Shown here piece after piece: positions 5,522 through 30,039 of a stretch of 32,000 bases of DNA. Below the pieces are notes generated by a model, which did not search any database, was not told where the DNA came from, and saw nothing but the letters and a program-made list of their open reading frames with translations. The stretch lies in the NCBI GenBank assembly GCA_964510585.1, contig CAZECW010000173.1, forward strand, positions 1 through 32,000, written 5' to 3'. Source of the DNA: an uncultured archaeon. GTDB taxonomy: Archaea > Asgardarchaeota > Jordiarchaeia > Jordiarchaeales > Jordiarchaeaceae. The position numbers and the translations under genes are program-made. Position 1 is the stretch's first letter; the number at the start of each line of letters is the position of its first letter.

Positions 5522-5915
5522 AAAAACCTACAACAAGAGACAATTAGGAAAACAACCTCTCCCCAAATTTCTGTAAAAGTCGGATTCAGTAAATAATTTT
5601 CCTGTACAATTCCCTTACCAAAAATCGCATACCTAGGATCCCAACACTAATTGGGAATTATCAATATTTCTTTTAAACAGTGTTCTAGGGAATGCTGTTC
5701 GGTGCCAGCCAACCTAATGATGCGAACAGGACTATTATAGCAAATTCGTAAATAATATTAGGAACACAATTGTAGCCTTGCCCACCCGACTAATTTGAAT
5801 CAAGAAAAACTTTGTTTAAGAAAGTTTTAAATTTTTCAAAACGGTAAGAATCATAAGAATGCGACTGAAGGATAATATCACAATAGAGCCAAATCATAAG
5901 GAGAAGTGTAGTACT

Positions 5916-6443
5916 ATGTCTGGAGATTACGATTATCTCTTCAAAATCATAGTAATCGGTGACGGAGCCGTCGGAAAGACAAGTTTGACTGTCCGCTTTT
6001 CGCAGGGATACTTCAAGGAAGATTACAAGATGACCATAGGCGTTGATTTTGCTGTGAAGACGGTTAGTGTTAATACGAATAATGGTCTTAAGACGGCTAA
6101 GTTGCAGATTTGGGATACTGGCGGTCAGGAGAGGTTTTCTTATATTCGTCCATTGTATTATCGTGGCGCTATGGGTGGATTGTTGGTTTATGATGTAACT
6201 AAGCGGGAGTCTTTTGAACATTTGGAGAATTGGTTAGAAGAAGTTGGCAAGCACTGTCCTTCTATCCCTATGGTTATGGTTGGTAACAAAACAGATATGC
6301 CGGGTAGAGCGGTTTCTCTAGAGGAGGCTTTGGAGTACGCAATTAATCATAATATGGTATATTTTGAGACTAGTGCAAAGGAGGGCACCAATGTGGAGGC
6401 CGCATTTGGAGATCTTACTAGAATTCTGATTGATTACACTTAG
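5916..6443 (+). CDS. Rab-like small GTPase (eukaryotic signature protein type), 175 aa, no C-terminal prenylation cysteines
   Basis: DYDYLFKII, GDGAVGKT, TIGVDF, KLQIWDTGGQERF, YYRGA, LVYDVT, GNKTD and ETSAK give all G boxes plus RabF motifs. ATG 5916 follows AGGAG. Confidence 0.95.
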   Translation: MSGDYDYLFKIIVIGDGAVGKTSLTVRFSQGYFKEDYKMTIGVDFAVKTVSVNTNNGLKTAKLQIWDTGGQERFSYIRPLYYRGAMGGLLVYDVTKRESFEHLENWLEEVGKHCPSIPMVMVGNKTDMPGRAVSLEEALEYAINHNMVYFETSAKEGTNVEAAFGDLTRILIDYT

Positions 6444-18080: not shown

Positions 18081-18411
18081 TTAACATATAAACAATCTCA
18101 GTCTAATAAATGATTTCAATTAAGTAAATATTAAATTATTTTTAAATTAATAAAAAAACGTGTGAATTTAGCTTTTGTTATCGAATGACTGATAGTAGGT
18201 CTCCAAGTCCAGAAAGAAGGCTTATTTTAGGCTCTTTCAGCGAAGGCTTCTCATCCGGAAAAGAAACACAAATAGCCCCCCATTCTAGGAAAAGGGAGCA
18301 TATAACACCAGATTGACCTTCAGAATCTAAATACACACAAAAAAACAATAAATTTTTTGGAATAAGATTACAGAAAAAACCCAGAAAAACCATCGTTATT
18401 TGGGAAAAAAA

Positions 18412-18987
18412 TTAACCCCCCGAGTTCTTTTTGGCAAGTTCTCTTCCTAGTTTAACTCCTCTTATTAGTGCCTGAATATTTCTCTCCTTTACGCTCTCCC
18501 TTAAGTCTAGTTCTAGCATCACATCAAGTAAAGAGTTTAAAATTGATTCTTCTGAAACAATATCAGTTATCCCAATTAAAGCTCCAAGCATTATAAGGTT
18601 AGCAGGCGTCTTGGACTTGAACTCGGACTCGGCGATTTTGATGGCGGGAATTCTGAAGATTCTAAAATTTTTCTCCGAGGAGATTTTTATATTCTCGTCT
18701 ATTAGTAGCAATCCTTCTTCCTTCAAGTTGCTTATAAATTCTTCTAGCGATTCTTCTGACATAATCACCAAAATGTCTGGATTAGTTATAATGGGGCAAA
18801 CAATTTCGCTGTCTGAAATGATAACGTCGGATACAGTTGAACCCCCTCTCACTCTGGAACCGTAACTTTGAATATTGGTAGCGTTTTTTTCCTCATAAAC
18901 CACGGCAGCGCGTGAAAGAATAAAGCCTAAAAGAACAATTCCCTGCCCGCCACTCCCAACAAACTGTATTTGTGTGGTCAACTCCAA
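18412..18987 (-). CDS. korC: 2-oxoacid:ferredoxin oxidoreductase gamma subunit
   Basis: GSGGQG, QSYGSRVRGG, ANLIMLGA and terminal N..AL..G. Probable TTG start at 18987 or 18981. Substrate specificity cannot be assigned from sequence. Confidence 0.9.
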   Translation of the reverse strand: MELTTQIQFVGSGGQGIVLLGFILSRAAVVYEEKNATNIQSYGSRVRGGSTVSDVIISDSEIVCPIITNPDILVIMSEESLEEFISNLKEEGLLLIDENIKISSEKNFRIFRIPAIKIAESEFKSKTPANLIMLGALIGITDIVSEESILNSLLDVMLELDLRESVKERNIQALIRGVKLGRELAKKNSGG

Positions 18988-18995
18988 ACATCCCC

Positions 18996-19883
18996 CTACT
19001 CTCTGAAAGATAATTCCAGCCAATCCAACTGCGGCCTTTTCAATTTAATGGTTCCTCTCTGCACGCCCTCAATGAGCTTTCTGTACTCGTTAGCCATTTC
19101 AGGTCTATCCCTGTCAGCGAATTCCCCCAGTATCAGTTTCCCGCTAATTTTTCTTGGAGGAAGCTTCTTTGCAACTTCCAGTTTAACGGTGCGCTCCCTG
19201 AACCAATCCATGAGCTGCTTGGGGTCGGGCATCTCGTTTTTTCTTCCGAACTGGGTTGGACACTGACTGATAACCTCTATGTAGGTGAATCCCTTTTTTT
19301 GTATGCCCTTAATTATGGAACTTATTATTCTCTGAGGCTGAACAGTGCTCCATCGAGCCACATAACTGGCGCCAGCACTAGTAACCAACTCACAGAGGTC
19401 AAAAAAGCCCTCCACACTACCGTAGGGAGAAGTGTATGTGTAGGCTCCCACAGGGGTGGTGGGACTTGTCTGGCTGCCGGTTAAAGCGTAAACCAAATTG
19501 TTGACACTAATCACATTAATGTCTATATTTCTTCTGGCGGCATGTACCAGATGTGATATTCCAATTGCTCCACTGTCCCCGTCCCCAGTGAAGACAATTA
19601 CTTCAAAGTCTGGGTTGAATAGTTTGATGCCTGTGGCGAAGGCTACAGCTCTTCCATGTGTCACATGCAGGCTGTCAGCATTAATGTATCCCGGTATTCT
19701 ACCTGAGCATCCTATTCCAGAAACAAAAACAATGTCGTCTATGTTAATACCCAATTCATCTATGGCTCGTAGGGTGCAGTTCATTATTATTCCATTACCA
19801 CAACCTGGACAGAAAACTGTGGGAAGTCTATCCTCCCGTAAATACTTTCTAAGAGGCTGAATCACGCATGTTTTCTCACCCAA
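18996..19883 (-). CDS. korB: 2-oxoacid:ferredoxin oxidoreductase beta (TPP-binding) subunit
   Basis: Motifs FCPGCG, SGIGCS, HGRA, GDGD...GISH..HA.RRN, NN.VY.LT..Q.SPT and QCPT. Confidence 0.93.
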   Translation of the reverse strand: MGEKTCVIQPLRKYLREDRLPTVFCPGCGNGIIMNCTLRAIDELGINIDDIVFVSGIGCSGRIPGYINADSLHVTHGRAVAFATGIKLFNPDFEVIVFTGDGDSGAIGISHLVHAARRNIDINVISVNNLVYALTGSQTSPTTPVGAYTYTSPYGSVEGFFDLCELVTSAGASYVARWSTVQPQRIISSIIKGIQKKGFTYIEVISQCPTQFGRKNEMPDPKQLMDWFRERTVKLEVAKKLPPRKISGKLILGEFADRDRPEMANEYRKLIEGVQRGTIKLKRPQLDWLELSFRE

Positions 19884-19907
19884 TTTGTCGCATCCTCCAA
19901 ATTTTGC

Positions 19908-21068
19908 TCACAAGAGCTTTTTTATAGCGTCGAGAATCTCTTTGGGTTTAAATTGCCTAGCTATACCCATGAGGGAAACTACTTGGGCTTTCCCCTTAGC
20001 CGCCTCGGTTACACTATGAACTAATTGACCGACGTTCAATTCGGGAACCAATATGTAATCCACTCCGCTTGCAATTTTGTGCACCTCATCGTAAGGGAAA
20101 GGCCAAATGGTAATCAAACGCAAGTAGTTAACAGGTATCCCCTCCTTTTCCGCCTCAATGACCGCTTCCAAAGCTACTCTGGAAACGCTTCCAAAAGAAA
20201 CAACTGCTATTCTTGAATCGTGAAAATCGCGCTTCTCAAAGTAGGTAAAAGCTTTAGAGTTGTTGACTATCTTGTCTCTCAAACGTCTCACAAGCTCCAA
20301 GTGCTTTTCTGGATCATCTATGGGGTATCCTTTCTCATCATGACTCAAACCCGTAAAGTGGAAGTGGTAGCCAGCACCAAAAGTGGGCAGTGGTGGGGGA
20401 ATCCCTCGCGAGTCAGGTTTGAAGGGCAAAAACTCTTTTGGCGGAACTTTAGGATTTCTTCTCCAAACCAATTTTAACTCGTCATGGTTTGGAATTTCAA
20501 CCTTCTCCCTTATGTGGGCCACCTCTTCGTCTGCCAATAATATGACTGGAACCCGATAGGTTTCCGCAATGTTAAATGCACGAATAGTTAAGTCAAACAT
20601 TTCTTGGGGAGTATTCGGAGCCAGAGCCACAATCATATTGTCTCCGTGTCTACCCCAAAGACATTGCATAACATCCCCCTGAGAAATGCGGGTAGGCAAA
20701 CCGGTGCTCGGACCAGCGCGTTGACAATCCACAACGACACAGGGAATCTCGCACATAACTGCCCAACCCAAGTTCTCCTGCATGAGAGAAAAGCCTGGGC
20801 CACTAGTAGCAGTCATGCCCTTCGCGCCGGCCAACACGGCGCCGAGTACTGCGGCAATGGAGGATATTTCGTCCTCACACTGTAGAAAAACCCCGCCAAC
20901 CTCGGGCATCCTACGAGCCATAACCTCCATAATTTCAGTAGCAGGGGTAATAGGGTAGCCAGCAAAAAATCTGCACCCCGCAGTTATCGCCCCTTCCGCA
21001 CATGCCTCATTTCCACTCATAAAGTATACTCCGGACTCCAACACAAAGTCCTTCCAACCATTTCCCAT
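19908..21068 (-). CDS. korA: 2-oxoacid:ferredoxin oxidoreductase alpha subunit
   Basis: Motifs GNEACAEGA, FAGYPITP, EDEI, TATSGPGFSLMQE, QRAGPSTGLPT and ELNVGQ. The exact start is uncertain. Confidence 0.93.
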   Translation of the reverse strand: MGNGWKDFVLESGVYFMSGNEACAEGAITAGCRFFAGYPITPATEIMEVMARRMPEVGGVFLQCEDEISSIAAVLGAVLAGAKGMTATSGPGFSLMQENLGWAVMCEIPCVVVDCQRAGPSTGLPTRISQGDVMQCLWGRHGDNMIVALAPNTPQEMFDLTIRAFNIAETYRVPVILLADEEVAHIREKVEIPNHDELKLVWRRNPKVPPKEFLPFKPDSRGIPPPLPTFGAGYHFHFTGLSHDEKGYPIDDPEKHLELVRRLRDKIVNNSKAFTYFEKRDFHDSRIAVVSFGSVSRVALEAVIEAEKEGIPVNYLRLITIWPFPYDEVHKIASGVDYILVPELNVGQLVHSVTEAAKGKAQVVSLMGIARQFKPKEILDAIKKLL

Positions 21069-21147
21069 AAGACCACACCAAAAGAAAACCTTTACCAAAT
21101 ATGGTTAAAATTAGGTAAAGTATACTTTTCTAGTTATTGGTTAATAT

Positions 21148-22032
21148 TTAGATTAGAGCCCTTCTAGCAAGGATAACCGAAATCAGCATTGAAACTAATA
21201 AGAACAGTAATAAGACAGAGGCGTCGAATAATAATGAGGGTAAAATATCCATGGTTGCAAATCCCCCTCCCAATTTTCCCAATTGTCCGCCCAGCATAAG
21301 TTTTCTTATCCCATCTACAGCGTAGGCTAGAGGGTTAAAGCGGGCAATAGCTTGGAGCCATTGGGGCATTGCTTCAACAGGGATTATGGTTCCACTTACA
21401 AAAAATATGGGCATTAGGAAGAGGTTTATTAGTTCGAAGAACTCGTGTCCCGCGATTTTTAGTCCAACGGCTGTTGAGATTGCCGAGAAACCCATGGTTA
21501 GCAGAATCAGGAAGGGGATGGTGAGTATAACATAGAATCCAGTGTTAATTTTCACGCCTATCAAGGGCACGAGGGCGAGCATAATTATGCCCTGTATTAG
21601 ACTTCTCAGGACAGTTGATGTGAGTTTTCCCAGTATGATGGATGTGCGGGGAATGGGGGATACTAGCAGCTTAGTTAAGAAACCCATACGTTTATCCCAA
21701 AATATTGAAGTGCCAGAAAATGCCGCCATAAACATTACCGAAGCCGCCACCACACCCGATGCATAGAAATCAATATAATTAACACTAAATATGTTCAGCA
21801 AAACATACCTTACAGGCGATGATGGAAGAAATAATAAAAGTGAAGAAAGAATACTTGCGCCTTGCATATTCCACGAAAAATTATAGTTATAGAGGGGCAT
21901 ACCTCCATTAAAGGCGAATCCGAAGAAGATTAGCCAGGCCAGGGGAGTGATTAGTGATGTGGCAAACTGGATTCTCCGCCGAAAATAATGCTTCATATCC
22001 CTTTGAGCTATTTGCCAAGCCTCAGCCAACAT
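21148..22032 (-). CDS. ABC-2 type (DrrB-like) exporter permease, paralog 3
   Basis: WDKRMGFLTKLLVSPIPR.SI.LGK, PIFFVSG..P and NPL.YAVD..R, with six or more TM segments. Confidence 0.9.
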   Translation of the reverse strand: MLAEAWQIAQRDMKHYFRRRIQFATSLITPLAWLIFFGFAFNGGMPLYNYNFSWNMQGASILSSLLLFLPSSPVRYVLLNIFSVNYIDFYASGVVAASVMFMAAFSGTSIFWDKRMGFLTKLLVSPIPRTSIILGKLTSTVLRSLIQGIIMLALVPLIGVKINTGFYVILTIPFLILLTMGFSAISTAVGLKIAGHEFFELINLFLMPIFFVSGTIIPVEAMPQWLQAIARFNPLAYAVDGIRKLMLGGQLGKLGGGFATMDILPSLLFDASVLLLFLLVSMLISVILARRALI

Positions 22033-22161
22033 GTAGCACATTACCTCTGAGAAACGGTGCTAAACCCGGTTTATAAGCTCTGCCATCAAAAAGTTTCAAG
22101 AAAAACATCAACTCTACCATAAACACTAAAATTCATACGAAGAAGAATTAGAGAAGAGTGT

Positions 22162-23079
22162 TTAAAGGGTATACTTTCTGAATAGTAGAGCCCCCGTAAC
22201 CACCATAACTACAAATATCACCATCAGCACCACAAAATCTAATAGTAAGGACCCCCCGATTCCCAAAACAAATAAATTCCAATTGATTGGCATATATAGA
22301 CCACCAAAAAGGGCCAGCCTAGTGGCGTCAACAGCATAGGTTAACGGGTTTCCCTGAGCAATAAACTGCAACCAATTGGGCATAGAGGCTATGGGTACAA
22401 CCGCCGAACTGGCAAAGAATAGGGGAAGTAGAATCATTTGAAATACGCCGAAGAAGACCTCGTGATCAGCCAACTTGATTCCCAAAGATACCGAGAGACC
22501 GGCGAGACCCGCAGCGAAAACTATCATGAAGGGAATGCTTATGGCAACGCCTAATATGCCAGTATAAATTTTGGCTCCCAATAGTACGGCCAGCACAACA
22601 ACCACTAAAGCTTGTATTAGGCTTCTAATAGTGGAAGACATCATTTTTCCCAGCATAATGGAAGATCTGGGAATTGGAGCCACCAACAATTTGGTGATAT
22701 ATCCAAACCGCTTATCCCAGATAATGCTTATTCCAGACATAAAGGCAGTAACCATGACAGTGGCGGCAATAATTCCAGTCGCCAAAAAATCGAGATATTG
22801 AATACCATAACTGGTTAATAGGATAGATTTTAGAGGTTCACCAATGGGAAGAAAATAAACAAAAAATTGAATAATGTTTAGTAGTCCCCGACCACCAAAA
22901 ATTGCACCACTCAAACCCGGAATCCCTGAACTTATCGCATAGCCAAAGAACCCCAGCCAAACCGCAGGCTGTATGAACGAAGTTAACACCTGCACTTTTC
23001 TTCGCATAAAATGTCTTAGCTCCCTTTCCGTTACATACCATGCCTCTTTAAACAAAAGCTTTTCCACCACCAAGCCCAT
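22162..23079 (-). CDS. ABC-2 type (DrrB-like) exporter permease, paralog 2
   Basis: WDKRFGYITKLLVAPIPRSSIMLGK, PLFFASSA and NPLTYAVD. Confidence 0.9.
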   Translation of the reverse strand: MGLVVEKLLFKEAWYVTERELRHFMRRKVQVLTSFIQPAVWLGFFGYAISSGIPGLSGAIFGGRGLLNIIQFFVYFLPIGEPLKSILLTSYGIQYLDFLATGIIAATVMVTAFMSGISIIWDKRFGYITKLLVAPIPRSSIMLGKMMSSTIRSLIQALVVVVLAVLLGAKIYTGILGVAISIPFMIVFAAGLAGLSVSLGIKLADHEVFFGVFQMILLPLFFASSAVVPIASMPNWLQFIAQGNPLTYAVDATRLALFGGLYMPINWNLFVLGIGGSLLLDFVVLMVIFVVMVVTGALLFRKYTL

Positions 23080-23110
23080 TCTAATTAAAAAGTTAACTGT
23101 TCAAAATTTT

Positions 23111-24004
23111 TCATTTGAGCGACCTTCTAAAAATGGTTACTCCTATCGAAACCATAATCACTATAAACAAGGTCAACACAACCGCATCCACCAGAAGACT
23201 CCCTCCAATCCCGATTAGAGCATAACCACCCCCCAATGGTCCAAAGGTCCCCCCCAGCATCGCACATCTTATTGCATCCACAGCGTATGTCAAAGGATTA
23301 AAATAAGCCACAACCTGCAACCAACCCGGCATAAGTTGAACAGGAACAAGAGCCCCAGAAGCAAAAAACAGAGGCAGAAGTATGAGATTAATAACTCCAA
23401 AGAATTCCTCATGTTCCGCCATCTTAATCCCAATAGCCGTAGATAACCCCGAGAACCCCAAGGTAAACAGAATCATGTAGGGCACAGCTATCACAACCCC
23501 CCATAGACCCGTATTCATTTTCGCACCCAAAACTATCGCCAAACCCATAACTATCAACCCCTGTATCATCGCTCTAACCGTTGCCGAAATCATTTTACCA
23601 AACATTATCGAACTCCTAGGAATCGGACTAACCAACAACTTATTAAGATAGCCAAACCTCTTATCAAACACTATAGAAACACCCGCAAACATCCCAGTAA
23701 ACATAACGGTCATAGCCACAATACCCGGAGAGAGGAAAGAGAGATAACTCGTGGTAGTCAAATTCAAAAGAAAGTAACTCTGCCAAAGTTCAAGATTCAG
23801 AGACAAAACAAAAAAAGTAAGCAAAGTGGGAATACCCTCAATCCCAAGACTACTCAAATTAAACCCAGGCAAACCCCCACTAAGCGCATAACCAAACAAC
23901 GCCAACCAAATCACAGGAGTAGCCAGAGAAGTAACAATCTGAATCCTCCGCCTATAAAAATGTTTAATCTCCCTCAAAGCCACATACCAAGACTCACTCA
24001 ACAT
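23111..24004 (-). CDS. ABC-2 type (DrrB-like) exporter permease, paralog 1
   Basis: FDKRFGYLNKLLVSPIPRSSIMFGK, PLFFASGA and NPLTYAVD. Confidence 0.9.
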   Translation of the reverse strand: MLSESWYVALREIKHFYRRRIQIVTSLATPVIWLALFGYALSGGLPGFNLSSLGIEGIPTLLTFFVLSLNLELWQSYFLLNLTTTSYLSFLSPGIVAMTVMFTGMFAGVSIVFDKRFGYLNKLLVSPIPRSSIMFGKMISATVRAMIQGLIVMGLAIVLGAKMNTGLWGVVIAVPYMILFTLGFSGLSTAIGIKMAEHEEFFGVINLILLPLFFASGALVPVQLMPGWLQVVAYFNPLTYAVDAIRCAMLGGTFGPLGGGYALIGIGGSLLVDAVVLTLFIVIMVSIGVTIFRRSLK

Positions 24005-24008
24005 ACTA

Positions 24009-25001
24009 CTAACGCCTTCTCCTCTTCATTAACATCATTCTCTTAAATAGCTCAATCCTGTCCGCCTTCTCCTCCCTAAGACTCCTACCCGTAAACTTAA
24101 TGAAAACATCGTCAAGAGTGGGACGACTCAGAGAAATATTATCTATACTCACACCAATCCTGCTCGCCTCCTGAAACAACTTGGGTATCGCAGTCTCACC
24201 CCTATCAACCGTCAACCGAATACCATCCTCCTGCGGCAAAACCTCAGTAACAAAATCCAAGGTTTTGATGTGATTCAGAAACCGCTCCCTATCATTAGCG
24301 TGCACCGTAACCACATCCCCACCCAGCATCCCCTTAAGCTCCTCCGGAGAACCAATATTCACAATCTTCCCATAATCAATAATCGCAATACGATCACACA
24401 ACTTATCAGCCTCATCCATATAATGAGTGGTCATAAAAATCGTAATACCCTCCTCGTTCAGCTTCCTAACATACTCCCAAATACTAGCCCGACTCGCGGG
24501 GTCTAATCCTAAGGTGGGTTCATCAAGGAATAGTATGTCTGGGTGGTGCATTAGTCCCTCGGCGATTTCTAGTCTGCGGCGCATTCCGCCGGAGAATTTT
24601 TTGACTAGAGTGTTTTGCCATTCAGTTAGTTCTACGATTTGAAGGAGTTCGGGTATCCTTTGTTGTATGAGGTTTTTGGGCATGTGGTAGAGTTTGCCGT
24701 GTAGTTCCATGTTTTCTCTTGCTGTGAGTTCGTCGTCTACGCTTATATCTTGGGGTACTAGCCCTATTTTTTTTCTTACTTCGTCTGGTTGTTTTTTTAC
24801 GTCTATTCCTGCTATTTTGGCTTCTCCTTCGGTTATTTGTGTTAGGGTGCATAGCATGTGCACCGTGGTTGTTTTTCCGGCTCCGTTTGGTCCTAGGAAA
24901 CCGAATATTTCTCCTTCCTGTACTTGGAAGCTTATGTGGTCTACTGCGGTGAATTTTCCGCCGTAGATTTTTGTTAGGTTGTTTGTTTCGACTATGGCCA
25001 T
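24009..25001 (-). CDS. ABC exporter ATP-binding subunit, DrrA family, 330 aa
   Basis: Walker A GPNGAGKT, Q-loop VPQ, signature FSGGMRRR, Walker B LFLDEPT, H-loop TTHYMDEA and C-terminal PTLDDVF. Confidence 0.95.
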   Translation of the reverse strand: MAIVETNNLTKIYGGKFTAVDHISFQVQEGEIFGFLGPNGAGKTTTVHMLCTLTQITEGEAKIAGIDVKKQPDEVRKKIGLVPQDISVDDELTARENMELHGKLYHMPKNLIQQRIPELLQIVELTEWQNTLVKKFSGGMRRRLEIAEGLMHHPDILFLDEPTLGLDPASRASIWEYVRKLNEEGITIFMTTHYMDEADKLCDRIAIIDYGKIVNIGSPEELKGMLGGDVVTVHANDRERFLNHIKTLDFVTEVLPQEDGIRLTVDRGETAIPKLFQEASRIGVSIDNISLSRPTLDDVFIKFTGRSLREEKADRIELFKRMMLMKRRRR

Positions 25002-25019
25002 TGTGGGGCACCGCTTTTT

Positions 25020-25440
25020 TATTTGTTATGAAAAACTTATTTCGTACTTTATGAAACGCGTTAATTGCATGTAGGTTTTTTTGGTATTTATTGACTGGGT
25101 GTGGTCTTTGTTTTTTGGTTTTTGGGGTTTTGTTGTTTGTGGGTTTTTGTTTTCGTGTTCTTTGATGTTTCTGCCATATAAGTGTTTTCGAATTTTTTGT
25201 GGGTTTTTGGGTTTGGATGTTTTTGTTGTTAGGCGGAGCGTTTTTGGTGATTTTTGGTTTGTGTTTTTGTTATTCTGGAAGAATTTAAAAGGTTTTTTGC
25301 GTATTTTTTTGTGGATTGGTTTAGTGTTTTCAAGCGGGTCGAATGAGGTTTTTGGTCCGTTTGAAGCTGTGTGTTGGTGTGAGTGTGTATATTTGGTATG
25401 GTTTGGTTTGTTGTGGATTTGAGTGTTGTAGGGGTATTTT
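25020..25440. other. Low-complexity G/T-rich intergenic tract
   Basis: 55 of 60 bases at 25081-25140 are G or T. TTTGTGGGTTTTTG occurs twice, 60 bp apart. Confidence 0.8.
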
Positions 25441-25442
25441 AG

Positions 25443-26516
25443 ATGGATGGGCAGTCTGTTTTGGCTATTGTTAGTTTTCTGCTTTATATGGGGTTTTGTA
25501 TTTTTTGTATTTATCAGAGGGATATTATGTTGATGTTGGAGTTGAGGAAGGTGGGTAAGAGTCTTAGGGAGGTTTCGAGGATGGTTAAGGAAGCCCGTTC
25601 AATGGTAATGTCTTGTTTTAGTGATAAGTTGACGGTGGAGGAGAAGGAGGAGGGTTTTGGGAAGGTTATTGAGTATTTCGTTATTGCGCCCATAGAAACG
25701 GATCCTTCGGGGGTTATGGGTCGCTTGGAGTATCTTCTTGATGTTAGTGATGAGGCTTTGGAGGGTTTGGTTAAACCGTTGGTGCCGGATGGGGATTTGG
25801 AAAAGGTGGAGAACCTTAAACAGATGTTCAGGGAGGCTGTAGTTCTTAATAGAATTTACAAAATGGTGAGGGAGATATATGTGTCGAGTAAGATGTCTAA
25901 GAGTCTTGAGACTACGATGCAGGCGACGATGAATCTGTCGCTTTTGGTTCGGGATGCTAGGATACGTTTTAAGGCGGTTAAGGCTTATGTAGATACTCAG
26001 CCTATTGGTAATGGTATTGGTCCTTTGGTGGTTGCGAAACTGTTGGGTGATTCTCGTTTTGAGGTTAGGGATGGGGTTGTTGTTTCTGAAGTGATGCATA
26101 AGGGGAGGGATTTAATATTGATTAAGCCTAAGGGTCCGGGGGCTAGGGTGAGAAATTTGGGTAAGGTTGCGGAGGCAGTAATAGAGGGGGAGGAAGATGT
26201 GGGGGGTGTGGTTATAGTAACGGCTGAGGTTAGACTTGAGGGGGAGAAATCTATTATCATAACGCCGGCGACTGGTGTTGCCTTGGTTTCTGAGCCTGAT
26301 AAGTATAGGCTGGAAGAGTTGGCGTCTCGGAGAAAAATACCGTTAATATCTTTGATTGTTAAGATGTCAAATGAGGAGTACTTCACAAAGATGAGTGATG
26401 AGGTGAGGGGTGCGGTCCCCAGAATTATTGGGAAGCTGGAAGAGTTAATGGGGGGATTCGGAAAGGGAAAGGTGGTAATAGTGGGGTCGGGAAACACTAT
26501 GTCTATAACTCCCTAG
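25443..26516 (+). CDS. DUF1512-family protein (N-terminal TM), divergent copy, 357 aa
   Basis: YFVIAP...DPSG, QPIGNGIGPLV, GPG, LEGEK, IPL..LIVK and terminal GSGNT match my recollection of archaeal DUF1512. Confidence 0.8.
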   Translation: MDGQSVLAIVSFLLYMGFCIFCIYQRDIMLMLELRKVGKSLREVSRMVKEARSMVMSCFSDKLTVEEKEEGFGKVIEYFVIAPIETDPSGVMGRLEYLLDVSDEALEGLVKPLVPDGDLEKVENLKQMFREAVVLNRIYKMVREIYVSSKMSKSLETTMQATMNLSLLVRDARIRFKAVKAYVDTQPIGNGIGPLVVAKLLGDSRFEVRDGVVVSEVMHKGRDLILIKPKGPGARVRNLGKVAEAVIEGEEDVGGVVIVTAEVRLEGEKSIIITPATGVALVSEPDKYRLEELASRRKIPLISLIVKMSNEEYFTKMSDEVRGAVPRIIGKLEELMGGFGKGKVVIVGSGNTMSITP

Positions 26517-26585
26517 TATAATTTGGAGCTTGGGGAGCTATTAGAAAAATGTGGTTTCTGAAATTTTTTCCTGACTATTTTGAAA

Positions 26586-27206
26586 TTATTCTATTGTTGG
26601 GTGGCGTTCTTTTAGGTCTTTTTCTTTGACGCCCAATCTCTCCATTAGTTCGGTTATCAAGCCGTCTAGGAACGCTAGAACGGTGGATTCAAATAGGGTG
26701 CCCAAGGGTGTTAGTGGGGAGTGTTCTCCTTTTATTTGTCTCCGGATGTAGTCGTTCTGTCCGTCTATTTTTGTTCGGCCACGGATGGTCAATACTAGGT
26801 CGGCCAATTGGGCTAGGGGGGAGTCTGGATAGGAGGTGATGACTACTAATGTTGCGTTAACCTCTTTTTTGGCGATGCGTGAGCTTTCTACCACGAGTTT
26901 TGTTGTGCCAGAGCCGCTTATGGCGATTAGTATGTCCTTTGATGTGACGGCGGGTGTTATGGTTTCTCCTATGACGAAAACTTCAAAACCGAGGTGCATA
27001 AGTCGCATGGCGAAGGCTCTTACCATTAGACCGGAGCGCCCCGCCCCCACTACAAAGATTCTTCTGCCGGATTTTAACCCGTTAATTAAGAGTTCGACTA
27101 GCTGGTTTACTTGGCTGTCATCAATTTCTTGGACTGCGTTAGATATGTTTCCACTGATTTCTAGCATCGCTTTTTTTAGGGTTCTGGTATTGGTCACCAC
27201 GCCCAC
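26586..27206 (-). CDS. hxlB: 6-phospho-3-hexuloisomerase (SIS domain)
   Basis: Motifs GAGRSG..RAFAMRLMHLG, GETITP, ISGSGTT, PLGTLFE and C-terminal RH..IE. Confidence 0.93.
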   Translation of the reverse strand: MGVVTNTRTLKKAMLEISGNISNAVQEIDDSQVNQLVELLINGLKSGRRIFVVGAGRSGLMVRAFAMRLMHLGFEVFVIGETITPAVTSKDILIAISGSGTTKLVVESSRIAKKEVNATLVVITSYPDSPLAQLADLVLTIRGRTKIDGQNDYIRRQIKGEHSPLTPLGTLFESTVLAFLDGLITELMERLGVKEKDLKERHPTIE

Positions 27207-27504
27207 CCGTGATTCTTAATATTCAATTTTCAATTTAAAAGTGACCATATATTTATACTCTACGTTTTAGATTCATGTCGAAATAATTAATGTTCTCAAT
27301 AAGAAATAGACATAAAAATGTATATATTAAATCTCGGTTTTAAACTTGTTTCTGTTTTGACTTTTCGTGTTACAGACTTGTTAAAGAATATACCGCGAAG
27401 ATATTCTATCTTGAATCGTTAGATGAACGGAGAAGTGGGTGTTTCCTCAAAATTTATATTATGCTCTTCTAATTATTGGGTTTAAGCGTTATGGAGGTAG
27501 AGAG

Positions 27505-29504: not shown

Positions 29505-29918
29505 ATAAGGGATTGGTATGTTTTAAACTTGAAGTGTGTCCATTAAAAAAACATATCCCCCTCACCGATAAAGTTCAAACTCCGATACCCCCACAATTTT
29601 TGGCTCTAAATTCGAAAATAAGGCCAATAAATTCACCTAAAGAAAAATAGAACTAATTTAAATCACCTTTCCAAGGAAAAAGACAAAAATACAACGAAAA
29701 AGGAAGCAATAAACAAAAACATTAAGACAAACACCGAAAAAACTTAAGGCATTCGGTTTCCCCTCGCAGAGAATCAAAAACCAAAAACAATACTTGGTCT
29801 ATGAGGACTTCAAGATAACACCGGAAACACTAAAAAATCCAAAAGCCTATGAAATTTAGATCTCTAAAAACAGAACCTCCCCAAGGACCAACCGCAGAAT
29901 CATTAGTAATAGGGAATA

Positions 29919-29972
29919 AAAAGGGAATTGTGCGGGGGCCTTCCCATGGTGGCGCCCACATAATTCCCTTTT
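29919..29972. repeat. Inverted repeat / stem-loop in a 1-kb gene-free region
   Basis: AAAAGGGAATT (29919-29929) pairs perfectly with AATTCCCTTTT (29962-29972) and continues into an imperfect GC-rich inner stem. Confidence 0.7.
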
Positions 29973-30039
29973 CTCCCTCCTCGTGTTAGTCGCATGGGTA
30001 AGCTTGATTTTTGTGAGAGGGAGTGATTTTGATTCTTTA

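Follow-up and report, generated by a model that had tools for sequence, protein, structure and literature searches.

An abrupt reversal of strand skew inside an archaeal ABC ATPase gene lies at the codons of a conserved protein motif

The locus described here lies in a 32,000-nt stretch of DNA (the window) from an uncultured hot-spring Asgard archaeon of the Jordiarchaeaceae. It is centred on an intact gene for a DrrA-type ABC ATPase of 330 amino acids (24009–25001, − strand), whose protein is complete and carries the Pfam domains ABC_tran and DrrA1-3_C. Three ABC-2 permease genes lie downstream of it on the same strand (21148–24004). On the other side, a spacer between divergent genes (25002–25442) separates the ATPase gene from a DUF1512 gene (25443–26516, + strand), beyond which is a SIS-domain gene (26586–27206, − strand). 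The spacer, including an open reading frame at 25081–25422, matched no Pfam family; it is the least conserved stretch among relatives and behaves as non-coding DNA.

Strand composition reverses abruptly inside the ATPase gene, whose codons end in A or C in the 5′ half and in G or T in the 3′ half. A maximum likelihood fit to third codon positions placed the change point at 24495–24498 (2-lnL support interval 24495–24501), at the boundary of the Pro168 and Ala169 codons, after …LFLDEPTLGLDP and before ASRAS…. On the + strand, G or T occupies 11.7% of the ATPase third positions to the left of this point and 88.1% to the right, and at freely variable positions the switch is complete within two codons, while codon positions 1 and 2 are nearly flat across it (0.53/0.59 and 0.46/0.52). 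The likelihood ratio for the change point was 218, whereas 5000 permutations averaged 4.9 and never exceeded 21. The breakpoint that the initial annotation had placed near 24490 is therefore statistically significant, and the base counts on which it rested are exact (A23 C19 G3 T15 at 24361–24420; A7 C7 G18 T28 at 24661–24720). In 200-bp windows, the + strand keto skew rises from −0.45 at 23801 to +0.63 at 25201, and the GC skew ranges from −0.47 to +0.73. The flip falls directly after the Walker B motif, and comparison of orthologs delimits a flip zone (24470–24530, − strand) made up of the Walker B and D-loop codons, ILFLDEPTLGLDP. The site is within coding sequence of about 47–55% G+C, and a search for promoter, terminator or origin-like repeat features at 24.5 kb found none at the flip.

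Two arms of opposite composition extend from the change point. The left arm (22000–24496, + strand A/C-rich) spans the 3′ half of the ATPase gene and the permease genes; its skew peaks beside the flip and decays over about 2.5 kb (K per 500 bp: −0.76, −0.76, −0.36, −0.18, …). The right arm (24497–27400, + strand G/T-rich) crosses the 5′ half of the ATPase gene, the spacer, the DUF1512 gene and the SIS gene, and decays over about 3 kb (K per 500 bp: 0.77, 0.61, 0.75, 0.53, 0.53, 0.16, …). This symmetric decay over 1–3 kb ignores gene boundaries, continuing through non-coding DNA and through genes on either strand. The skew is limited to silent and non-coding sites and is maximal in the spacer, where the keto skew is 0.65, 0.63 and 0.72 at frame positions 1, 2 and 3. 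Coding-strand keto3 drops with distance from the flip along the three permease genes (0.64, 0.18 and −0.06), and is +0.65 in the DUF1512 gene and −0.57 in the SIS gene. The SIS gene, on the − strand, shares its + strand skew with the neighbouring DUF1512 gene on the + strand, so the skew belongs to the DNA rather than to the gene. Transcription direction had been set aside as an explanation in the initial annotation, and rightly so: the switch occurs in a single gene, at third positions only, and its arms cross both orientations. Since only third positions are affected, protein content is likewise unable to explain the flip.

The same junction was found in independent material. A 1444-nt contig from an independent 2017 run spans 23741–25184 with zero differences, and five further assemblies from the genus, including a closed chromosome, have the intact gene with a flip in the same zone. 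These rule out the mis-assembly at 24490 that had been raised as a concern. A chimera is further refuted by the intact reading frame, the restriction to silent sites and the presence of the site in a manually closed chromosome, and with six assemblies sharing the site we give an assembly or sequencing artefact a negligible probability. A relative that is about 93% identical contributed a 4795-nt contig spanning 23003–24915, and was present in a hot-spring run from which the present strain was absent. In two runs that carry a metatranscriptomic label, though they are probably DNA, only a relative was found.

The fixed point proposed in the initial annotation holds up in related genomes, the breakpoint staying inside about 30 nt throughout the genus: change points lie at residues 159–168 in five genus orthologs and at residue 169 in the genome studied here. 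Six of the seven differences between G000 and G004 in the flip zone are transitions. Across the six genomes of the genus and the sister family that were compared, the flip is confined to the one genus; its strength varies, being weak in the wetland-soil species, and it is absent from sister-family orthologs.

The position of the flip is tied to the protein motif encoded there. A flip was found at 7 of the 8 sites genome-wide that encode hhDEPxxGL[D/H] and at none of the 27 other hhD[E/Q]P sites, in a test that was post hoc, framed after the data had been seen. Elsewhere in the genome, at unrelated locations, six further ATPase domains flip at the homologous protein motif, which indicates that the position is set by the gene sequence and not by chromosomal location; a codon flip of this kind in unrelated surroundings is what the initial annotation had named as refuting its own reading. 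Among paralog sites homologous to a flip, 11% also flip; the rate at control positions is 0.9%. In UvrA, an unrelated ABC protein, the second ATPase domain has its flip at this motif too, and further flips lie within signature motifs of CDC48 (two paralogs), EF-2 (DTPGH), RtcB, actin and purD, with ferredoxin flipping twice at CxxCxxCxxxCP. At the motif, paralogs share only about two thirds of their nucleotides, and no duplication or gene conversion partner was found for the region in the genome, the best alternative match reaching 67.9% over 635 nt.

Genome-wide, we counted 113 sharp flips from A/C to G/T against 23 of the opposite polarity, with the ATPase flip the fourth strongest of the 113. 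The polarity bias increases with sharpness (46 vs 1 at d of at least 1.0, 20 vs 0 at d of at least 1.2). The flips lie inside genes, at more than 100 sites in 3.8 Mb or about one per 30 kb, and between neighbouring flips the skew declines roughly linearly in a saw-tooth; there are also long neutral stretches between arms, for example at 10–22 kb of the window. Intergenic skew correlates with flanking third-position skew (r=0.57). Genes with an internal flip run from A/C-ending codons at the 5′ side to G/T-ending codons at the 3′ side on either strand, and genes on average drift towards A/C at their 3′ ends. A switch is seen on average at convergent gene ends but is absent from divergent promoters (kL −0.01, kR +0.03).

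The stem lineage of the hot-spring clade acquired the skew through transitions. On the crown stem, the G/T arm of UvrA underwent 57 class-changing changes, of which 53 are transitions; 46 of the 57 went towards G/T and 11 away from it, and tip changes are likewise mostly transitions. At the ATPase locus the skew is now partly eroding in four crown genomes, where maximum likelihood puts the root fraction at 0.88 and the equilibrium at 0.60 (LRT 24.7); this loss implies that the process is not steadily active at the locus. The estimate comes from a non-stationary maximum likelihood fit, which replaced biased parsimony counts of erosion: a simulated stationary two-state process with skewed composition mimicked erosion, with a spurious excess of 2.3:1. 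Runs of tip substitutions in one direction were considered as signs of tract events and rejected, as composition alone explains them.

The initial annotation had suggested a local site of bidirectional unwinding or initiation, and the origin-like polarity on which it relied, A/C-rich to G/T-rich on the + strand, is borne out and is shared by bacterial and archaeal oriC. The flip is not, however, a chromosomal replication origin. No ORB-like repeats or AT-rich unwinding element were found near it, only two weak, distant inverted pairs, and the contig contains no TIGR02928 or Cdc6_C match that would mark an orc1/cdc6 gene. In the sister genome G003, the regions adjacent to orc1/cdc6 show a moderate switch or none. 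Archaeal oriC lie between genes and next to orc1/cdc6, at one to a few per chromosome. Unlike oriC, the flip has an amplitude near saturation at silent sites, arms of 1–3 kb and counterparts at more than 100 intragenic sites, and its position follows a protein motif. For a closed genome of the genus, bidirectional replication has been reported from chromosome-scale skew (PMC11291895). An origin-less genus was also considered and rejected; the G000 assembly yielded no Orc1/Cdc6, yet G003 and G005 have three copies each, so the gap in G000 most likely reflects assembly incompleteness. Resection from a double-strand break had been said to predict the opposite polarity. This is true for deaminated 3′ tails but not for break-repair synthesis, as repair synthesis of the SDSA or BIR type with a single-stranded nascent strand would predict the polarity observed, and breaks are thus still a possible source. 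The polarity is as expected if the strands running 5′ to 3′ outward are exposed or newly made.

The reading that we favour, tentatively and with a probability somewhat short of even, is that the flip records, over evolutionary time, a point anchored by sequence at which bidirectional DNA synthesis or unwinding has recurrently taken place. The flip would then be the centre of a 5–6 kb ‘butterfly’ of strand asymmetry, in which the outward 5′→3′ strand on each side would gain G and T at unconstrained sites through C→T and A→G changes. The point may be specified by the local gene sequence, namely the Walker B and D-loop codons (DEPxxGL[D/H]), and a recurrent local DNA transaction would begin there and run outward in both directions for 1–3 kb. 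Nick- or break-initiated repair or recombination synthesis, or some other origin-independent initiation, would be the most likely candidate, and would leave the outward strands newly synthesised or transiently single-stranded. Single-stranded DNA deaminates faster, and more so when hot, and the transitions may arise from such heat-accelerated deamination or from G/T misincorporation. Misincorporation gives far more G/T than C/A, and the leading nascent strand preferentially acquires C→T and A→G (PMC6159521). The start of synthesis or unwinding at the point, the lesion or error that makes the transitions and a recogniser of the motif are what we infer from this pattern. The composition fits both a source, with outward strands gaining G/T, and a sink, with inward strands gaining A/C, and the mean A/C drift at gene 3′ ends is not accounted for by outward synthesis.

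The sink form of the argument would invoke biased heteroduplex repair or gene conversion. Invading 3′ ends would pair at the most conserved stretch, heteroduplex would extend back from it, and NucS/EndoMS, by sparing C/A mismatches, would let A/C on the invading strand survive, turning strands that point towards the anchor A/C-rich. The polarity is consistent with 3′-end invasion, the flips do sit in the most conserved motifs, a relative of about 93% identity was found in a hot-spring run, and NucS is present with a published specificity for G/T and not C/A mismatches (PMC6159521). We nevertheless regard this as unlikely, as NucS is equally present in the skew-free sister family, paralog identity of about two thirds is too low for pairing between paralogs, and the maximal skew of the non-coding spacer is left unexplained. 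Codon choice is very improbable: the proposal that the flip tunes translation speed around the motif, with A/C-ending codons pairing by Watson–Crick rules with G34/U34 tRNAs and G/U-ending codons needing wobble or C34, would suit the constant 5′ to 3′ order of codon endings on either strand and the shared motif in paralogs. It is largely refuted by the non-coding DNA, which is the most skewed and equally so in three frames, by arms that ignore gene boundaries, and by opposite-strand neighbours that share the + strand skew and hence have opposite codon choice.

True local replication initiation, at one of many eukaryote-like points that supplement or replace Orc1/Cdc6 origins, is distinctly unlikely. 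It would explain the origin-like polarity and the sharp switch; moreover, the near-linear fall between flips recalls mammalian N-domains, which are bordered by upward skew jumps, and origin spacing in yeast resembles the interval of about 30 kb. Against it, the arms are gone within 1–3 kb and leave long neutral stretches, the site, at 47% G+C, is within a gene and lacks ORB-like repeats, and its position tracks a protein motif across paralogs; the orc1/cdc6-adjacent regions and the bidirectional replication reported from the closed genome, both noted above, also argue against it. A transcriptional cause is quite improbable. Two divergent start sites within the gene, or R-loops, could expose the non-template strands on either side, which agrees with the polarity, and somatic hypermutation likewise decays over 1–2 kb from the start site. 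Yet it is convergent gene ends and not divergent promoters that switch on average, the flip is 540 bp away from the real divergent spacer, and the 5′ half of the ATPase mRNA is skewed opposite to the expectation for its own transcription.

Among the candidates searched, no enzyme or recognition mechanism for the flips was found. A prokaryotic Argonaute guided by multicopy sequences was rejected, as Piwi is absent from G000, G003, G005 and G006, and cDNA-mediated conversion from mRNA 3′ ends was rejected with 0 RVT_1 matches in five genomes. NucS, UDG and endonuclease V occur in skewed genomes and also in one that lacks the skew; with these genes present regardless of skew, a simple defect in deamination or mismatch repair does not explain the restriction to one genus. 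Homing endonucleases fared no better (0 LAGLIDADG_3 and one HNH match in G000), and none of 30 homologs has an insert. Ghost intron or intein sites were also dismissed: the hypD and ppsA mRNA-intron sites and the sole extant mini-intein all lack a flip. With regard to CRISPR self-targeting, the assembly has one doubtful array-like repeat only.

Several known systems share part of this behaviour. Homing endonucleases, inteins and introns target the catalytic motifs of highest conservation in conserved genes, are largely indifferent to wobble positions, can share targets among paralogs, and have RtcB and translational GTPases as known hosts of inteins. The flips likewise occupy conserved catalytic motifs common to paralogs, although none carries an insert and the endonuclease matches are as sparse as given above. 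Kataegis in yeast and cancer produces kilobase tracts of deamination-type changes on one strand, with strand switching at a point, as here; its clusters are single somatic events caused by APOBEC or chemical damage to single-stranded DNA at breaks or during break-induced replication, whereas the flip is a fixed, lineage-wide, selection-filtered equilibrium held at the same point over evolutionary time. Transcription-coupled asymmetry, whose sign goes with the transcribed strand and changes at promoters, does not match, given a switch within one gene, skew shared by opposite-strand genes and divergent junctions close to zero. There is also a resemblance to bacterial GRINS, which show intense, positively correlated GC and TA skews in functional coding sequence, strongest at third positions, and change abruptly from G+T-coded to C+A-coded (PMC8256042). 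By the skew measure used for GRINS (correlated GC and TA skews whose absolute values average more than 0.15 over 150-nt windows), the present region qualifies, with mean |GC skew| 0.39, mean |TA skew| 0.28 and r=0.64. GRINS are further defined as repeats exceeding 500 bp in length and 80% in identity, and are tied to gene conversion between bacterial PKS modules, although their authors also noted single-copy skewed regions (PMC8256042). Unlike GRINS, the ATPase region is single-copy (the 67.9% match over 635 nt falls below these repeats), and the phenomenon is genome-wide in an archaeal genus, with one fixed switch polarity and anchoring at protein signature motifs. The same analysis may shed light on GRINS.

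A more specific form of the favoured reading is a genus-specific DNA transaction aimed at conserved-motif codons such as DEPxxGL[D/H], with repeated bidirectional synthesis or unwinding over kilobases. We consider this possible, with the balance of probability clearly against it. If true, archaea would have sequence-directed hotspots of recombination or initiation of a class not known before, with a logic comparable to eukaryotic recombination hotspots or origin-independent replication starts and readable from silent-site composition. Silent sites record long-term unequal treatment of the strands at codon resolution, and if the flips mark starts of synthesis or repair, more than 100 hotspots have been mapped without experiment in an uncultured relative of eukaryotes. 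Skewed regions of this kind also violate assumptions of codon-usage, horizontal-transfer and origin-prediction methods, and bias parsimony and stationary substitution models. The motif link offers a handle for finding the recognising factor by contrasting the wetland species and sister family with the hot-spring clade. No DNA motif common to all flips was apparent by eye in 25 sites; G+C is slightly raised in the 10 nt before the flip (0.55 vs about 0.46).

The abrupt change of the plus strand from A/C-rich to G/T-rich DNA near 24.5 kb (hereafter the flip) lies inside a complete ABC ATPase gene on the minus strand (24009-25001; 330 residues, ABC_tran and DrrA1-3_C domains). The 3.78-Mb assembly that carries it (G000) comprises 217 contigs, the window being C173:1-32000. 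In 200-bp windows, plus-strand keto skew, (G+T-A-C)/N, climbs from a minimum of -0.45 at 23801 to +0.63 at 25201; GC skew moves from -0.47 to +0.73 across the flip, and AT skew shifts the opposite way. At third codon positions of the ATPase gene, the plus strand is 11.7% G/T to the left of the change point and 88.1% to the right, with codon positions 1 and 2 near-equal in composition on both sides. Maximum likelihood places the change point between 24495 and 24498 (2-lnL interval 24495-24501). Its likelihood ratio of 218, a value compared with 5000 permutations of which none exceeded 21, bears out the breakpoint proposed at about 24490 in the initial annotation, whose two hand base counts were exact on recount. 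In the coding sense, the protein sequence ...LFLDEPTLGLDP/ASRAS... is encoded by A/C-ending codons before the slash and G/T-ending codons after it.

An assembly error at the junction had been named as a possible explanation. However, a 1444-nt contig from an independent 2017 hot-spring run spans 23741-25184 with zero differences, and a 4795-nt contig from a relative about 93% identical spans 23003-24915. Five other genomes of the genus, including one closed chromosome of 3,576,204 bp, carry the same intact ATPase gene with the flip in the same zone. The independent contig and these five genomes rule out mis-assembly or artefact.

The skew is a feature of the DNA itself rather than of the gene. 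Gene-wise keto skew at third codon positions (keto3) spans -0.87 to +0.87 across G000, regardless of gene strand. Within the G/T-rich arm to the right of the flip, coding-strand keto3 is +0.65 in the DUF1512 gene (plus strand) and -0.57 in the SIS gene (minus strand), so the plus-strand skew is the same in both. Skew is maximal, and alike at the three frame positions (0.65, 0.63, 0.72), in the 440-bp spacer at 25002-25442, which has no Pfam family and weak conservation, and between called genes genome-wide it correlates with that of flanking third positions (r=0.57). Together these results reject translational selection as the cause. The spacer includes an ORF (25081-25422, 113 codons) that is probably not a true gene: it matches no family, conservation among relatives is lowest there, and its G/T bias is equally extreme at each codon position.

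A scan of G000 using 80-codon windows on each side found 113 sharp A/C-to-G/T flips versus 23 of opposite sense at an absolute flip size (d) of at least 0.8, 46 versus 1 at d of at least 1.0, and 20 versus 0 at d of at least 1.2; the ATPase flip ranks fourth by strength. This polarity is invariant under reverse complementation, and therefore any gene with an internal flip passes from A/C-ending to G/T-ending codons. Every strong flip sits midway between two symmetric arms, each declining over 1-3 kb irrespective of gene boundaries, and the DNA between distant flips is neutral, for example at 10-22 kb of the window. Coding-strand skew averages +0.15 at gene starts and drifts to -0.24 at gene ends. 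Averaged over gene junctions, a switch is seen at convergent but not at divergent junctions, making promoters unlikely as a general source. Two more switches of the same polarity, weaker or intergenic, lie at about 5700-6000 and 29900-30000 of the window. At C196:41125-44969, 2.2 kb separates two ABC ATPase genes that both flip at their DEPxxGLD motif, with a full saw-tooth between them (K 0.75, 0.71, 0.12, -0.16, then 0.56).

The strongest flips include pairs of paralogs that flip at homologous codons. Counting flips at d of at least 0.4, positions homologous to a flip also flip in 11% of 218 paralog comparisons, versus 0.9% of 4514 control positions elsewhere in the same paralogs. Flips are shared in this way only within subfamilies. 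Six DrrA-type ABC ATPases do so, although their protein identity is only 32-52% and they are spread over five contigs and both strands, as do the second ATPase domain of UvrA, two CDC48 paralogs out of four, and two groups within a family of proteins of about 445 residues. Within the ABC domains, 0 to 9 codons separate the Walker B aspartate from the change point that follows it. All flipping ABC domains read DEPxxGL[D/H], whereas those that do not flip read DEPxxNLD, DEPxxALD, DEPTTGQD and so on. Genome-wide, seven of eight hhD[E/Q]PxxGL[D/H] sites flip, against none of 27 other hhD[E/Q]P sites (Fisher p 1.2e-6, for a pattern defined post hoc). Other flips are precisely placed at AHGA/GR in RtcB, ISIKGPE in CDC48, INLIDTPGH in EF-2, CxxCxxCxxxC/P in two ferredoxin genes, YPVEHG in actin, GPETGGMG in purD, HDCCP in thiolase and GGGWNIM in acyl-CoA dehydrogenase. 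The flipping paralogs are not DNA-level copies of one another, the flip region's best other match in the genome being 68% over 635 nt, and no DNA motif shared by the flips was seen by eye in 25 sites. The recurrence of the same flip at a homologous motif in unrelated contexts, an outcome that the initial annotation had listed as counting against its reading, contradicts the idea of a position-specific site.

Conservation of the breakpoint in related genomes, also raised in the initial annotation, extends throughout the genus, the ATPase orthologs flipping at residues 159-169. A strong flip is present in G001, G003 and G004, whose proteins are 97-98% identical, and in G002, at 88%. In G005, a genome from wetland soil, protein identity is 81% and the flip is weak, the coding-strand G/T fraction going from 0.19 to 0.48. 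No flip is seen in orthologs from the sister family, at 62-64% identity, or from 12 further families. Patchiness, the standard deviation of keto skew in 500-bp windows, ranks genomes in the same order as ATPase flip strength: 0.18-0.19 in G000, G003 and G004, 0.09-0.13 in G002 and G005, and 0.04-0.10 elsewhere in the phylum. Every run with more than a quarter of the stretch is labelled hot-spring metagenome.

The place of the flip is stable, its strength rises and falls by lineage, and the changes are mostly transitions. Between species 91-95% identical the boundary shifts by at most 30 nt, and six of the seven differences in this zone are transitions. Substitutions were polarised over 18339-27446 among the four crown genomes (G000, G001, G003 and G004). 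By parsimony the skew seemed to be eroding strongly, third-position changes towards versus away from G/T standing at 77:32 for the A/C arm and 17:86 for the G/T arm, although in simulation parsimony alone yields about 2.3:1 apparent erosion under stationarity. Stationarity is still rejected despite this bias, as a non-stationary two-state maximum-likelihood model gave a root of 0.88 and an equilibrium of 0.60 for the G/T arm (LRT 24.7), and 0.18 and 0.35 for the A/C arm (LRT 7.8), versus an LRT of 0.3 in a control stretch. At the UvrA locus, changes towards versus away from G/T on the crown stem were 46:11 in the G/T arm, and 53 of the 57 class-changing changes were transitions. Since then flux in this arm has been eroding in G003 (1:32) and balanced in G000 (21:21) and G001 (16:19), a balance that requires an approximately five-fold per-site bias still to be acting.

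A chromosomal origin at the flip is rejected. Neither ORB-like repeats nor an AT-rich element occur at 24.5 kb, and no orc1/cdc6 was found on C173. The whole G000 assembly (96% complete) has no Orc1/Cdc6 gene above TIGR02928 or Cdc6_C thresholds; G003 and G005 have three copies each, and the origin regions seem to be missing from G000. The orc1 regions of G003 are not strong flips, one having a moderate switch only (-0.25 to +0.2) and the other none. For the closed genome of the genus, cumulative GC skew has been reported as consistent with bidirectional replication (PMC11291895). Of the earlier proposal of a local site of bidirectional unwinding or initiation, the fixed, bidirectional, DNA-level feature stands, but its position-specific or origin-like character does not. 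Also without support as causes are Argonaute (no Piwi in G000, G003, G005 and G006), reverse transcriptase (no RVT_1 match in five genomes), loss of NucS, UDG or endonuclease V (genes not lost) and homing endonucleases (none of LAGLIDADG_3 type and one HNH match in G000). The extant intein and two mRNA-intron sites show no skew flip. This intein, the only one found in G000, is a mini-intein without an endonuclease domain in a helicase-like gene (DEVH box; C105:12039-14150) with no skew feature around it.

Composition allows two mirror accounts, in which either outward strands gain G/T or inward strands gain A/C. Inward gain would fit a model in which an invading 3' end anchors in the conserved stretch and NucS then introduces a bias when mismatches in the heteroduplex are handled. 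Outward gain would instead involve a process beginning at the flip point and leaving the outward strands newly made or single-stranded, such as local initiation, nick-primed strand displacement, or the repair of breaks through either synthesis-dependent annealing or break-induced replication. These strands could then be enriched in G/T by the deamination of C and A, which is faster in single-stranded DNA and greatly accelerated by heat, or by an excess of G/T misincorporation. G/T misincorporations far outnumber C/A, and C to T and A to G changes are favoured in the leading nascent strand (PMC6159521). The argument in the initial annotation that breaks predict the opposite polarity holds for deaminated 3' tails only. 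We favour outward G/T gain over the 3'-end invasion account because skew peaks in the non-coding spacer, the two arms mirror each other and strength tracks hot habitat, although these three reasons are not decisive.

The closest described phenomenon is GRINS, found in bacterial polyketide synthase genes, which likewise shows intense, correlated third-position skews with abrupt changes (PMC8256042). GRINS are, however, defined by repeats and gene conversion (PMC8256042), and with a best other match of 68% over 635 nt the flip region falls outside that definition. We found no description in the literature of kilobase flips of this kind in archaea; no word beginning with 'Asgard' or 'keto' occurs in the main text of a 2026 survey of archaeal skews, and a literature search pairing 'Asgard' with 'nucleotide skew' gave unrelated papers only. 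What is new is the single polarity, motif anchoring, restriction to one genus, and lineage-specific build-up and decay of local intense skew.

Other elements were also seen. A repeat of about 200 bp at 18141-18345 of the window recurs four more times in the genome, at 72-89% identity (C75, C80, C196 and C35). In three sister genomes the contig or the alignment is interrupted precisely at this repeat, pointing to a small element that is mobile or resembles a MITE. The assembly's sole signal resembling a CRISPR array is a doubtful one, made up of five 22-mer copies at about 50-nt spacing (C58:41318-41523). One contig ends in an element of about 140 bp (C38:31995-32135; L063:14994-15134) that recurs dozens of times in G001, G003 and G004, at 75-86% identity and in either orientation, with none listed for G005; it probably represents a MITE family whose expansion took place in the hot-spring clade.
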